From an uncultured Candidatus Saccharibacteria bacterium (GTDB taxonomy: Bacteria; Patescibacteriota; Minisyncoccia; Minisyncoccales; CAYTKG01), in NCBI GenBank assembly GCA_964387175.1, contig CAYLVJ010000001.1, forward strand, positions 602-64,601: 64,000 nt of DNA, read 5' to 3'. Positions within the stretch are counted from its first letter, which is position 1, and each line of letters starts with the position of its first letter. A program made the position numbers and the translations under genes. The notes under the pieces are model-generated. The model was given only the letters and a program-made list of their open reading frames with translations. It had not been told where the DNA came from and did not search any database. This document shows positions 23,710 through 64,000 of the stretch, piece by piece.

Positions 23710-24084
23710 ATGAATAAGAAAATACTTTTGGTGGAGGACGATCCTTTGATTGTTAAAATTTACAAGACACGTTTAGAGGAGGAAGGCTTTGAGGTGGAAG
23801 TTGTTTCTCAAGGGGAAAGGGTAGTGGGGGAGCTAAAGAAAAATGAATTTGACCTTGTTCTTTTGGACATTGTTTTACCTGAGTTGACGGGTTTTGAGAT
23901 TTTAAAGAGGATAAAAGGGGAGGGTCTTTTGGAAAACTTGAAAGTTTTAGTTCTTTCTAATCTAGGGGAGAAAAGGAGTGTGGAAAAAGCAGCCAAATTG
24001 GGAGCGGTAAGCTACTTGATAAAAGCGCATTACACCCCCACCGAAGTCATAGAGGAGGTTAAAAAGACTTTAAGTGAAAATTAA
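23710..24084 (+). CDS. CheY-like response regulator receiver protein
   Basis: LLVEDDP...DLVLLDIVLPELTGFEIL...KVLVLSNL receiver motifs. Confidence 0.8.
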   Translation: MNKKILLVEDDPLIVKIYKTRLEEEGFEVEVVSQGERVVGELKKNEFDLVLLDIVLPELTGFEILKRIKGEGLLENLKVLVLSNLGEKRSVEKAAKLGAVSYLIKAHYTPTEVIEEVKKTLSEN

Positions 24085-37232: not shown

Positions 37233-37244
37233 AAAATTAAGTTG

Positions 37245-37591
37245 TGGAGATGGGGAGATTGAACTCCCGTCCAAAACTTCCGCGAGCGTGTTTCTACAAG
37301 CTTAGTCCATTTGTTTTTTTCAAGAAACCGAGTAGTAAATGGACAAAATCTTCGATTTCTTTATCCCTTTTGTTTCGAAAGACTTGTTGGGAAGACAAAC
37401 CTTTCTATCTCAATATATGATACCGGATCTTGACTATTGAGAATCGTCAAGGCGGCACTACCCTTAAGCGTAAGCTAGGGCAGGTTCGAAATCAAAGTTG
37501 GCATTTGTTTGCCTTCCAGGTTTTTGATCAGTTTCCTGGGAACTGAGCTTGCGGCATTCTCACAATAAGTTTTGTCGATGCATGCATCCCC
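37245..37591 (-). ncRNA. ssrA: tmRNA (ssrA), tag peptide ANFDFEPALAYA
   Basis: 5' GGGGATG pairs with 3' CATCTCC+A giving G3:U70; T-arm-like GGGAGTTCAATCTCCCC; in-frame GCC AAC TTT GAT TTC GAA CCT GCC CTA GCT TAC GCT TAA at 37464-37502 (- strand); adjacent smpB. Confidence 0.8.
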
Positions 37592-60326: not shown

Positions 60327-60398
60327 GCCAGCGTAGCTCAGTGGGAGAGCAATGGTTTTGTAAACCATCGGTCGTCGGTTCAAATCCGACCGCTGGCT
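60327..60398 (+). tRNA. tRNA-Thr (UGU)
   Basis: acceptor GCCAGCG/CGCTGGC, anticodon loop TTTGTAA, T-loop GGTTCAAATCC. Confidence 0.8.
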
Positions 60399-60433
60399 CT
60401 TGACACAAAATTTCCGGGCATTATAATAAAAGT
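60399..60433 (+). promoter_or_regulatory. rRNA promoter TTGACA-N16-TATAAT
   Basis: consensus hexamers immediately after tRNA-Thr, ~190 nt upstream of 16S. Confidence 0.55.
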
Positions 60434-60542
60434 GAGGTTAAAAGTAAAACTTACCATGCCAGGAGACGGAGGTAATTAAAATTAAAAATAAAGTAAGAAG
60501 GTTTGGTAAAACCACGAGCCTTCGTGGTTTTTTTAACCCAAA

Positions 60543-60554
60543 GTTCTTTGAAAA
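60543..60554 (+). promoter_or_regulatory. boxA-like antitermination element GTTCTTTGAAAA (preceded by hairpin 60508-60536)
   Basis: resembles boxA TGCTCTTTAACAA in rRNA leader. Confidence 0.4.
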
Positions 60555-60617
60555 TTAAATATGGACCTTTTGAGTTGCTTCGAACCTTGTATTCGTAAAG
60601 CTTTATTGCTTTACACC

Positions 60618-62104
<1,487 letters not shown>

Positions 62105-62220
62105 TCGATGTTGTCGACTAAGATTGATAGCTGAAATTTGGCTATTAATCTTAAAGGTATTGGTCTCGAGGCCTCTAAACCGAGACACCTGGTTTGAAGC
62201 AACTCAAAGGGTCCAAGAGT

Positions 62221-62246
62221 AAAAAAGGCCGAAATGGCCTTTTTTG
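62221..62246 (+). terminator. terminator-like hairpin after 16S (AAAAAAGGCCGAAATGGCCTTTTTTG)
   Basis: GC stem + T-tract. Confidence 0.5.
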
Positions 62247-62288
62247 TTTGAGAAAAGTTAGTTTTTGTTTTAAGATATAAGAAGATTA

Positions 62289-62365
62289 GGGTGTGTAGCT
62301 CAGTTGGCTAGAGCACGTCTCTGATAAAGACGAGGTCCGTGGTTCGAGTCCACGCACACCCACCA
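62289..62365 (+). tRNA. tRNA-Ile (GAU), CCA encoded
   Basis: acceptor GGGTGTG/CACACCC, anticodon loop CTGATAA. Confidence 0.85.
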
Positions 62366-62368
62366 TTT

Positions 62369-62440
62369 GGGCCGTTAGCTCAATGGCAGAGCACCTCGTT
62401 TGCATCGAGGAGGTTACCAGTTCAAGTCTGGTACGGTCCA
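62369..62440 (+). tRNA. tRNA-Ala (UGC), G3:U70
   Basis: acceptor GGGCCGT/ACGGTCC with G3:U70, anticodon loop TTTGCAT. Confidence 0.85.
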
Positions 62441-62496
62441 CACTACTTTCCCATCTAAAAAGGTCTTTAATAATAAATTTACAATTAATTTATAAC

Positions 62497-63210
62497 ATGA
62501 ATGACAAATTACTTTTAGAAGTAGGAGGTAATCTTCCGGAAAGTTGGCAAAGCGCTTTAAGCCCTCGGCCTTTTACAGTGGCTTTTCAAAGAATGATTGG
62601 GTTTTTCCCTAATATTATTGGGTCGATTATTCTTCTAGTGCTCGGTTGGCTGGTGGCCAACGGTATTGGAAAGTTAGTTAGTGAACTTTTGAAAGCTTCT
62701 GGGTTTAACAAATTATTTGAAAAATCCGGGTGGCAGGAAGCTTTAAAAAGAGCGGAGGTGGAGGTGGATGTTTCTCAATTTTTGGGAGCGGTTTGCAAGT
62801 GGGTTCTTTTCTTTGTTTTTCTGGCGATAGGGGTTGAAGTTTTAGGACTCAGTCAGTTTGCTGGATTCTTAAATCAAGTTCTAGCTTATATCCCCAGCGT
62901 GATTGTTTCTGTTTTAATTTTTGTAGCAGCGGTTGTTATTTCCGATATCCTAGAGAAAATAGTGGTTGCTTCTTTGGAGAAAGCAAAACTGGGTTACACG
63001 AAACTAGCTGGACTTTTAGTTAGGTGGGCGATAATAGGGTTTTCTTTGCTGGCTATTCTGGTTCAGTTGGGTATTGCCAAAGAAATGGTACTTGTTCTGT
63101 TTAGAGGAGTAGTTGGTTTCTTTGTTATTTCCTTGGGTCTTGCTTTTGGCTTGGGAGGAAAAGAAATCGCCGGTGAAATCTTAAGAAAACTTCAGAGAAA
63201 ATTAAAATAA
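62497..63210 (+). CDS. membrane protein with conserved TM-helix repeats (mechanosensitive-channel-associated TM_helix-like), inside the rRNA spacer
   Basis: 237 aa from ATG 62497; 4-5 TM helices, repeated ~50-aa units; track ORF start 62383 overlaps tRNA-Ala so internal ATG chosen. Confidence 0.55.
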   Translation: MNDKLLLEVGGNLPESWQSALSPRPFTVAFQRMIGFFPNIIGSIILLVLGWLVANGIGKLVSELLKASGFNKLFEKSGWQEALKRAEVEVDVSQFLGAVCKWVLFFVFLAIGVEVLGLSQFAGFLNQVLAYIPSVIVSVLIFVAAVVISDILEKIVVASLEKAKLGYTKLAGLLVRWAIIGFSLLAILVQLGIAKEMVLVLFRGVVGFFVISLGLAFGLGGKEIAGEILRKLQRKLK

Positions 63211-63254
63211 TTTTAACTTAAAACTTTGAAACACTGTTTTTTTAACATTGTTTC

Positions 63255-63283
63255 TTGACACTTTTTTTTAATTAAGTTAAAAT
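63255..63283 (+). promoter_or_regulatory. promoter TTGACA-N17-TAAAAT upstream of 23S
   Basis: consensus -35 and good -10 ~180 nt before 23S 5' end. Confidence 0.45.
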
Positions 63284-63460
63284 CAAATTGACATGCAAAA
63301 AGTTTTAAACAAAGGAAGTGGCTAAAGCTCGCTTTATGGAGTGGGTTTTGGCTGCTTCCTTTGGAAGCAGCTTTTTAGTACTTTAAAAATTAAATAATGC
63401 AAGTAAATTTGAGAAGGTTGAGCTTGGTTTTGCCAAGCTTAACTTGACCAGGTCTAAAAA

Positions 63461-64000
<540 letters not shown>

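Follow-up and report, generated by a model that had tools for sequence, protein, structure and literature searches.

A putative translation-dependent attenuator ahead of the 23S rRNA gene in Parcubacteria with a divided rRNA locus and no anti-Shine-Dalgarno sequence

The current analysis concerns the ribosomal RNA (rRNA) locus of an uncultured Patescibacteriota bacterium and, above all, the leader that precedes its 23S rRNA gene. The window, by which we mean the whole stretch of DNA analyzed, comprises 64,000 nucleotides (nt) of assembly GCA_964387175.1 (contig CAYLVJ010000001.1, 602–64,601, forward strand), and all coordinates are counted within it (Table 1). The genes for 16S, two transfer RNAs (tRNA-Ile and tRNA-Ala) and 23S follow one another on one strand in the order of a canonical rrn operon; unlike such an operon, however, the locus contains an internal terminator (62217–62249), an internal promoter (63255–63283) and a protein gene in the spacer (62497–63210), and it very probably functions as a chain of separate transcription units rather than as one operon. 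The 23S leader carries a conserved element that is restricted to 23S leaders, in which a near-leaderless mini-open reading frame (mini-ORF) overlaps the first of three RNA strands, termed A, B and A', that can form two mutually exclusive helices ahead of a boxA-like motif. We see somewhat better than even prospects that this element acts as a translation-dependent transcription attenuator gating the synthesis of 23S and 5S rRNA. A first-pass annotation of the same DNA had already described a fragmented rRNA operon with its own 16S terminator, a spacer gene and a separate 23S promoter, and this description holds up, each of the elements it listed being found where it had placed them or within a few bases. 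What it missed is the most unusual part of the leader, namely the conserved mini-ORF, the terminator/antiterminator switch and the boxA. It had also put the spacer gene in the place of the 23S leader, which is incorrect, since a full leader follows that gene.

Relatives were gathered as 80 loci, one per GTDB species, fetched through an alignment of the spacer gene and annotated by blastn against the window rRNAs and with ARAGORN; individual loci are cited by L numbers. An independent sample, made without recourse to the spacer gene, was obtained from a metagenome scan for the pattern AGCGGYTRR-N15-45-CCGCT-N3-12-AGCGGYTTTT, which returned 120 loci. Among the 111 testable hits, 87 have a 23S start 48–408 nt (median 141) downstream. 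The remaining 24 were set aside as chance matches, as they have no rRNA hit and most of them lie on contigs of higher GC content (0.40–0.66 overall) and have the look of a gene end followed by a terminator. The features of the locus are more than chance matches, as distant relatives have them too, in independent assemblies.

The 23S promoter proposed by the first-pass annotation is widely conserved. A match of at least 10/12 consensus positions is present between the spacer gene and 23S in 36 of 38 loci, compared with 3.1 expected and no more than 8 in any of 200 dinucleotide shuffles, and most of these promoters have a perfect TTGACA. It is likewise found in all 9 of the loci in which other genes separate the spacer gene from 23S. 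Since these nine loci keep the promoter, the mini-ORF and the switch together at 23S, it is evident that the element belongs to 23S. Immediately downstream, the mini-ORF of the window (ATG CAA AAA GTT TTA AAC AAA GGA AGT GGC TAA) starts 9 nt past the -10 hexamer. An ATG lies 6–17 nt past the -10 hexamer in 36 of 38 loci, against a background of 23% of random 20-nt spacer windows, and the frame that it sets meets its first stop codon 18–40 nt before strand B in 34 of 35 loci. The other two frames have a stop at that spot in 1 and 3 of the 35, and shuffles reach 8 on average and 18 at most. The metagenome copies behave in the same manner: an in-frame ATG without an intervening stop is present in 73 of 74 distinct 23S-linked copies, as opposed to 1 and 0 for the other frames, and the -10 hexamer of a promoter ends 6–18 nt before this ATG in 50 of the 74 and abuts it in one more. 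Among these 74 copies, mini-ORF lengths cluster tightly at 13 codons. Although the search pattern permitted TGG at the stop position, TAA was found 37 times, TGA 28 times, TAG 9 times and TGG not once. The encoded peptides are variable and mostly basic, and a C-terminal Ser-Gly alone is fixed; this is because its codons, AGC GGY, constitute the core of strand A and are dictated by the RNA helix. The constraints on the mini-ORF would therefore appear to act on its translation and not on its peptide product.

The manner in which such a mini-ORF might be translated is consistent with the 16S rRNA of these organisms. The 3' tail of the window 16S (62085–62104) reads GGATCGAATAATTT and lacks the CCUCC anti-Shine-Dalgarno (anti-SD) sequence, as do all 16 relatives examined, and the lack of a Shine-Dalgarno sequence before both the spacer gene and the mini-ORF fits such a tail. 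Initiation that is leaderless or independent of a Shine-Dalgarno sequence is to be expected in a clade without an anti-SD. Loss of the anti-SD has already been reported for a subgroup of the Parcubacteria (PMC9297842).

Strand A usually extends from -7...-12 to +1 with respect to the stop codon, and in 33 of 35 loci it shares positions with the footprint that a terminating ribosome is expected to have. Its partner, strand B, can alternatively pair with A', from which it is separated by a loop of 3–8 nt, and the latter helix together with the following U-run forms an intrinsic terminator in 35 of 38 loci. In the window, this terminator has a free energy (dG) of -16.4 and a z of -4.1 and is also reported by a terminator scan. 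A boxA-like motif matching at least 10/12 positions occurs in 21 of 35 relatives, compared with 0.76 expected, typically 15–30 nt past the terminator. The competing A:B duplex, as evaluated with RNAduplex, has a z below -2 in 28 of 35 loci (median -3.25) and, for strand A of the window, an energy of -14.8 versus -8.0 for shuffles. When strand B was permuted among loci, the summed A:B energy had a mean of -301.1 (sd 8.4) versus -354.5 for the real pairs, and 0/5000 permutations reached the real value. Several loci exhibit compensatory variants in all three strands, listed as A/B/A': L026 (GTTGGCT/AGCCAAC/GTTGGCT), L057 (GCGGAG/CTCCGC/GCGGAG) and L077 (CGCGG/CCGCG/CGCGG), with a further three-strand change in L049. 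The minimum free energy structure of the window leader is the long A...B hairpin at 63310–63363 (25 bp, -44.4 kcal/mol, z -7.9), and for this reason the antiterminator should win in the absence of interference.

A covariance model built from 14 copies, termed R1, was searched against 751 kb. All of its hits with E < 0.01 lie in 23S leaders, one per locus, except for a reverse-strand match at the same site in L008. The window element is recovered at 63309–63382 (E 9e-12), and no second copy was found in the window. In the alignment of 35 R1-based hits (34 leaders plus the reverse-strand match of L008), A:B is 85.0% paired with a covariation of 0.216 versus 0.165 for shuffles, and B:A' is 84.8% paired with a covariation of 0.210 versus 0.159; 0/500 shuffles reached the real value in either case, and sliding the partner reduced pairing to at most 55% and 57%, respectively. 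The covariation of both helices indicates that both are maintained, despite being mutually exclusive. Within the 23S leader, Rfam yields no hit at the gathering threshold, and all hits of a permissive scan of 63211–63470 (E up to 10) are far below it. An apparent likeness of "GGAAGCAGC" to the RNA of the signal recognition particle (SRP) was dropped, as Rfam gives no SRP hit. We also considered whether the same attenuator precedes 16S and rejected this, given that R1 has no match in the window 16S leader, the whole-leader fold has a z of -1.8 and the 16S leader of several relatives is short and carries a boxA alone.

Based upon these features, the following scheme can be proposed. The first transcription unit would consist of a promoter, boxA, processing stem, 16S and intrinsic terminator. 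The second would be driven by a weak promoter and include tRNA-Ile, tRNA-Ala and, in this genome, probably the spacer gene, whereas the third would be driven by a strong sigma70-type promoter and contain 23S and, as in relatives, 5S. The transcript of this third unit would open a few nt before the mini-ORF ATG, where ribosomes would initiate without a Shine-Dalgarno sequence. As long as no ribosome occupies the mini-ORF, A:B would form first and RNA polymerase would proceed through boxA into 23S. A ribosome positioned at the stop codon would mask A and leave B free, since B begins 22–32 nt beyond it (18–40 nt in 34/35 loci). With A masked, B:A' would form and transcription would terminate before the boxA antitermination signal is picked up. 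The outcome would be a negative coupling of 23S-5S output to translation capacity, i.e., a cis-encoded ribosome feedback, and a second purpose may be to balance 50S output against the separately transcribed 16S. The polarity and the purpose of the switch are the weakest steps of the scheme, and its most specific form, in which a functional 70S ribosome translates a leaderless 13-codon mini-ORF in the first 40 nt of the pre-23S transcript and ends this transcript before boxA in anti-SD-less Parcubacteria, is offered tentatively and at slightly less than even chances.

Several considerations weigh against this scheme. The start site, translation of the mini-ORF and termination at B:A' are all predictions made from sequence, as are the polarity of the switch and the purpose that it would serve. 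Stalled ribosomes would raise 23S read-through, which is the opposite of classical stringent logic; the mini-ORF peptides contain no conserved regulatory codons and suggest no specific signal; and the window mini-ORF has 10 codons compared with the modal 13. True compensatory changes are few because the GCGG/CCGC cores of the helices are highly conserved, and double changes are limited to 3/10 pairs in A:B and 6/11 in B:A'. The hairpin before boxA can also be read as a boxB-like element, and the 16S leader of the window has a hairpin and U7 before its boxA without a detectable switch. In addition, the nearest homologue of the window's spacer gene (L081, 65% identity) is not beside rRNA at all, being located between a 2-thiouridine desulfurase gene and murB, and 20/66 loci are unlinked. 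Some of these points would equally suit a simpler account, which we regard as unlikely, wherein genome reduction and drift have fragmented the locus, the 23S leader is an ordinary rrn leader (a boxB-like hairpin plus boxA, with a helix for RNase III or for folding), the mini-ORF plays no regulatory part and 23S is constitutive. Its appeal lies in the order of hairpin and boxA, as found in classical leaders, in the 16S leader hairpin and U-run that precede boxA with no switch, in the modest covariation that follows from conserved helix cores and in the fact that Patescibacteria are already listed with unlinked rRNA genes (bioRxiv 10.1101/705046). It nevertheless leaves unexplained why a single frame is open in 73/74 and 34/35 copies, why a stop codon stays in a fixed place as it varies among TAA, TGA and TAG but never TGG, why the stop-to-B spacing of 18–40 nt and the modal length of 13 codons are constant, why A matches A' and covaries with it and why the U-run is so consistent. 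Furthermore, many 16S leaders of relatives carry a boxA without any of the mini-ORF or switch features.

Two further accounts seem to us more improbable still. The element could be a stand-alone small gene encoding a small RNA (sRNA) or a micropeptide of 10–13 amino acids (aa), with 23S being transcribed by leak-through or from upstream units. Indeed, its promoter and terminator bound a transcript of ~85–95 nt, and trans-acting sRNAs and leader peptides derived from attenuators are known, such as rnTrpL and peTrpL (PMC6614838, PMC7298713). A micropeptide is difficult to reconcile with the lack of peptide conservation beyond the helix-dictated Ser-Gly, however, and the element occurs directly upstream of 23S and nowhere else in the sequences searched. 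There is also no further conserved promoter between the element and 23S, a terminator upstream of the promoter in 14/36 relatives would block read-in, and the antiterminator strand A would be pointless in a simple sRNA gene. The other account, to which we assign a similarly small probability, supposes that a trans factor, such as a 50S ribosomal protein or an assembly factor, binds the A:B hairpin and sets the switch, the mini-ORF being secondary. Autogenous leader attenuation by ribosomal proteins is known, for example from L10(L12)4 in B. subtilis (PMC4538822), and the cores of A and B are as unusually conserved (AAGCGGTT / ACCGCTTC) as a protein-binding site would be. Conversely, the inner hairpin varies in both sequence and length, and the coding constraints on the mini-ORF would have no explanation. 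Attenuation by a ribosome translating the mini-ORF is the reading that we carry forward.

Table 1. Elements of the rRNA locus within the window, in order of position.
Feature	Position	Strand	Basis or remark
tRNA-Thr(TGT)	60327..60399	+	ARAGORN; abuts 16S promoter
16S promoter TTGACA-16-TATAAT, 12/12	60400..60427	+	Promoter consensus scan
GC-rich hairpin and U7 in 16S leader	60510..60536	+	Fold; just ahead of boxA
boxA-like GTTCTTTGAAAA in 16S leader	60543..60554	+	Read from sequence; recurs in 16S leaders of relatives
16S processing stem, 5' strand	60562..60595	+	Duplex with 62181-62215
16S rRNA, complete	60619..62104	+	Rfam RF00177, 1416.8 bits
16S processing stem, 3' strand	62181..62215	+	Duplex with 60562-60595
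16S intrinsic terminator AAAAAAGGCC-gaaat-GGCCTTTTTT	62217..62249 (core 62221-62246)	+	Hairpin and U-run
Candidate weak promoter TTGAGA-17-TAAGAT, 9/12, for the tRNA-Ile/tRNA-Ala(/PF05552 gene) unit	62248..62276	+	Promoter scan
tRNA-Ile(GAT)	62289..62365	+	Rfam, ARAGORN
tRNA-Ala(TGC)	62369..62441	+	Rfam, ARAGORN
Degenerate AAAGGTCGR copy (ctaaaAAGGTCTtta)	62455..62469	+	Motif marking the 5' untranslated region of the PF05552 family
PF05552 membrane-protein gene, 237 aa, ATG 62497 to stop 63210	62497..63210	+	Pfam
23S promoter TTGACA-17-TAAAAT, 11/12	63255..63283	+	Promoter scan
Near-leaderless mini-ORF, MQKVLNKGSG and stop	63293..63325	+	Frame tests
Strand A (GGAAGTGGCT)	63314..63323	+	Spans last codons and first base of mini-ORF stop; clade consensus AAGCGGTTAA
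Variable inner hairpin extending A:B into a 25-bp stem-loop	63324..63349 (stem-loop 63310-63363)	+	Fold
Strand B (GGCTGCTTCC), pairs with A or A'	63350..63359	+	Clade consensus ACCGCTTC
Strand A' (GGAAGCAGCT) and U-run	63363..63376 (A' 63363-63372)	+	Consensus AAGCGGTT; with B, predicted intrinsic terminator
boxA-like GTACTTTAAAAA, 10/12 to clade consensus GAACTTTGAAAA	63378..63389	+	Motif scoring
23S rRNA, 5' part, truncated by window end	63463..64000	+	Rfam RF02541, first 533 model positions

The division of the locus begins with the 16S unit. The -35 hexamer of its promoter starts one base past the end of tRNA-Thr(TGT), a tRNA which also precedes the 16S promoter in L002, L014, L020, L028 and L039 and is conserved in this place across the clade. 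The two strands flanking 16S form a processing stem of ~30 bp with a dG of -48.9. The hairpin that the first-pass annotation had noticed behind 16S is indeed a terminator-like structure (dG -14, z -4.6, 0/200 shuffles equaling it), and a strict intrinsic terminator is found 116–244 nt past 16S in 12 of 17 loci, compared with 0.39 expected, with imperfect ones being seen 3' of 16S in other relatives. As for the hairpin in the 16S leader, no competing strand was found for it and it is not conserved, several relatives having short 16S leaders without a hairpin. A possible short ORF (ATG 60455 to TAA 60478) ends ~31 nt 5' of it. Separately, a GTCGAC/GTCGAT motif recurs within the first 10–40 nt after 16S in nearly all loci (window 62105–62135: tgttGTCGACtaag), with a conserved local hairpin of the "gattgatagctgaaatttggctattaatc" type behind it; both probably belong to the 3' processing structure of 16S. 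At the other end of the locus, the first-pass annotation had suggested looking for complementarity between the 5' and 3' flanks of 23S. Relatives do possess such a stem, as 18 of them have a 23S with its own 25–35-bp 5'/3' processing stem, followed by 5S; in the window the 3' end of 23S lies beyond the last base. Further evidence for separation of the units comes from a terminator between the spacer gene stop and the 23S promoter in 14 of 36 relatives versus 0.49 expected, which the window does not have.

Between these two units lie tRNA-Ile(GAU) and tRNA-Ala(UGC), the presence of which, as previously annotated, is agreed upon by ARAGORN and Rfam. In relatives where tRNA-Ile directly follows the 16S terminator, a promoter-like sequence is visible by eye in the same place, most clearly in L005 and L028. 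The interval from tRNA-Ala to the spacer gene in the window contains no promoter according to the scan and no structure according to the fold, and the gene is thus probably co-transcribed with the tRNAs, its mRNA presumably being freed through tRNA processing. Many relatives have a further protein gene between the 16S terminator and tRNA-Ile, which encodes a 158-aa PF04073 aminoacyl-tRNA editing (YbaK-like) protein (L002:5206-5682, with equivalent sites in L004, L008, L009, L012, L014 and L020); it is not present in the window. In another relative, a group II intron domain fragment (L037:255-339, Rfam RF01998) adjoins a truncated 3' fragment of 16S.

The spacer gene itself is the sole long ORF between tRNA-Ala and 23S. 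The first-pass annotation had described it as a polytopic membrane protein of 237 aa and suggested comparing it with PF05552 and MscS. It matches PF05552 (MS_channel_1st_1) in two stretches (E 2.5e-19, 69.3 bits versus a gathering cutoff of 22), scores 73.9 against NCBIfam msc (NF033912), which is under the cutoff of 100, and has no match at E <= 1 to the PF00924 channel/vestibule domain in the Pfam scan. The AlphaFold2 model is all-helical with a predicted local distance difference test score (pLDDT) of 84. In a structure search this model locally matches TM1-TM3, from the transmembrane (TM) region of MscS (6vyk_A, probability 0.97, root-mean-square deviation 3.2 Å over 107 columns), with an E-value that is not significant, and a profile search of PDB sequences returned MscS TM hits at a similarly non-significant E of ~0.06–0.1. 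The similarity thus extends to the TM region of MscS only, and the product is predicted to be an MscS-TM-like polytopic membrane protein with two TM-helix repeats, for which a channel function may be proposed from resemblance only. A large protein collection contains 1394 homologues, almost all of 224–229 aa, and the few named ones are labelled Paceibacterota, Nealsonbacteria or Pacebacteria. An alignment of 22 homologues has a mean column identity of 67%, and the ratio of nonsynonymous to synonymous substitutions (dN/dS) is 0.025–0.13 over nine pairs, one of which is saturated. These values rule out a spurious ORF or pseudogene and point to a genuine gene under purifying selection. A mobile or homing-endonuclease insertion can likewise be ruled out, as Pfam finds solely PF05552 in the ORF. 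No paralogue was found elsewhere in the 64-kb window.

As first noted from the window alone, a coding sequence (CDS) between tRNA-Ala and 23S seemed highly unusual. The gene is certainly there; it is not peculiar to this genome, however, and is an ancestral, clade-wide trait of anti-SD-less Parcubacteria. The PF05552 gene is located upstream of 23S on the same strand, with a gap of 231–887 nt from its stop codon to 23S, in 37 of the 66 loci that have enough downstream DNA to be testable. In 9 others 23S is 1–5 kb away, and in 20 there is none; for 12 of those with none, an Rfam scan confirmed the absence of 23S. Wherever tRNA-Ala or tRNA-Ile occurs within 1.5 kb upstream of 23S, the gene lies between them (11/11 cases), and of 52 independent metagenome loci, 31 have it no more than 600 nt upstream of the 23S leader. 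In a neighbor-joining protein tree, loci with the gene near 23S are scattered over the whole clade of the Candidate Phyla Radiation (CPR), whereas three non-CPR outgroups have no such linkage; the linkage is therefore ancestral and was lost several times. The window 16S is 76–80% identical to those of relatives, and the synteny therefore spans a deep divergence. An assembly chimera or mis-binning can be excluded as well, since the identical order is present in dozens of independent assemblies. It had also been proposed that gene order was retained and a CDS inserted into it. The order is kept, but the conserved linkage is that of the PF05552 gene with 23S and not with 16S. We found no evidence of a functional tie between the PF05552 gene and the ribosome, and inherited synteny is our default reading of their proximity.

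Two motifs accompany the PF05552 gene. The first, AAAGGTCG(A/G), is located 30–60 nt before the ATG in 46 of 78 relatives (L002, L004, L005, L008, L009, L020 and L028 among them), compared with ~1.5% of loci by chance. It is present regardless of whether 23S is adjacent and usually lies ~15–25 nt past a TGnTATAAT promoter or a tRNA 3' end. Elsewhere in the window it is not enriched (9 matches versus 7.6 expected). The second is a DnaA-box-like TT(A/T)TCCACA on the coding strand, ~90–260 nt 5' of the gene in 28 of 77 loci (background 0.017 per 260 nt), which is often extended to GTTTTCCACAGG; examples include L004, L005, L009, L013, L020 and L043, and in L043 the 9-mer sits within a hairpin with a U-run. 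The same 9-mer is found just 5' of some 23S promoters (L034, L050 and L067) and is absent from the window's own spacer. Of the DnaA-box matches at 23987, 24094 and 53531 of the window, the two inspected are both inside coding sequence and were discarded as candidates for an origin.

Apart from the rRNA locus, the window contains a tRNA-Ile with a TAT (UAU) anticodon (1019–1095, - strand) in a cluster of tRNAs for Phe, Val, Leu, Val and Ile. The UAU anticodon is uncommon in bacteria, in which AUA is normally read by a lysidine-modified CAU tRNA. A transfer-messenger RNA gene (37242–37591, - strand) with the tag peptide ANFDFEPALAYA is unrelated to the rRNA locus.

When the 23S leader is compared with known systems, obvious parallels exist with the amino-acid attenuators (trpL, pheL, hisL and ilv). 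Both combine a short ORF in the leader with antiterminator and terminator helices that exclude each other and with an intrinsic terminator ahead of the gene, and in both the position of the leading ribosome would select the helix. Despite these parallels, the product here is 23S-5S rRNA and not an mRNA for a biosynthetic pathway, the leader ORF lacks any run of regulatory codons and is itself near-leaderless, in a clade with no anti-SD in its 16S, and a boxA lies past the terminator. The element also has three strands (A, B and A') rather than four, and as a result the absence of translation would yield read-through instead of super-attenuation. Parallels to rrn antitermination leaders (boxB-boxA-boxC) are evident as well, inasmuch as boxA-like motifs precede both 16S and 23S and a hairpin precedes boxA. 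In E. coli, the spacer boxA lies within one long transcript and rRNA feedback operates at the promoters P1/P2 via guanosine tetraphosphate (ppGpp) and nucleoside triphosphates (NTPs), whereas the 23S of the present locus is served by a promoter of its own and the hairpin is predicted to be a U-run terminator whose competing strand is coupled to a putatively translated ORF. According to the ribosome-feedback model attributed to Nomura, idle ribosomes reportedly repress rRNA synthesis, and the scheme proposed here shares this idea of repression by idle ribosomes.

The arrangement of the locus can be related to previous descriptions of rRNA genes in two ways. Unlinked rRNA genes have been described in Thermus, Rickettsiales, Helicobacter and Patescibacteria, with the latter listed as mostly unlinked, where unlinked denotes a 16S-23S distance >1500 bp or genes that lie apart (Brewer et al., bioRxiv 10.1101/705046). 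The present locus resembles these in that 16S and 23S appear to be expressed separately, as judged from signals and not from distance, and differs from them in having kept its gene order and strand. Since its 16S-23S spacer of 1358 nt falls under the 1500-nt threshold, it would be scored as linked in that study, which does not describe any particular gene conserved in the spacer or any element conserved in the leader of 23S. Insertions within CPR rRNA genes, on the other hand, have been described as introns and homing-endonuclease ORFs, in a report that makes no mention of spacers or operons (PMC11270868). Both cases involve protein-coding sequence tied to a CPR rRNA locus, but the ORF here resides in the spacer rather than inside an rRNA gene, encodes a PF05552 membrane protein and no endonuclease and belongs to a set of orthologues that are subject to purifying selection both at rRNA loci and away from them. 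The protein in turn shares with the MscS channel the PF05552 helix motif and a local fold match to TM1-TM3, and is unlike it in having two TM-helix repeats only, with no PF00924 or cytoplasmic vestibule domain. Our literature searches returned nothing relevant on a spacer CDS in CPR bacteria or on PF05552, nor any account of an rRNA gene preceded by a leader peptide or attenuator.

How rRNA synthesis is matched to translation capacity is a classical question, and to our knowledge, the ribosome-feedback idea has never been tied to a direct cis-acting sensor. The 23S leader described here has the full anatomy expected of a translation-sensing attenuator, in more than 100 independent sequences of a major uncultured clade that has only one rRNA locus, lacks the anti-SD and transcribes 16S and 23S separately. 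It constitutes a leader RNA family that we did not encounter in Rfam or in the literature searched. That rRNA genes are unlinked in Patescibacteria was known already; a mini-ORF attenuator ahead of 23S would represent a known type of regulation acting upon an unprecedented target. The stable presence of a protein gene in the spacer has consequences for long-read amplicon sequencing of rRNA operons and for the classification of rRNA genes as linked or unlinked, because by distance the locus scores as linked and its signals say otherwise. If the proposed scheme is correct, it would offer a molecular mechanism by which ribosomes are held in homeostasis and their subunits in balance, would add rRNA as a new class of target for leader-peptide attenuation and would be the first known leader-peptide attenuator to control an rRNA gene.

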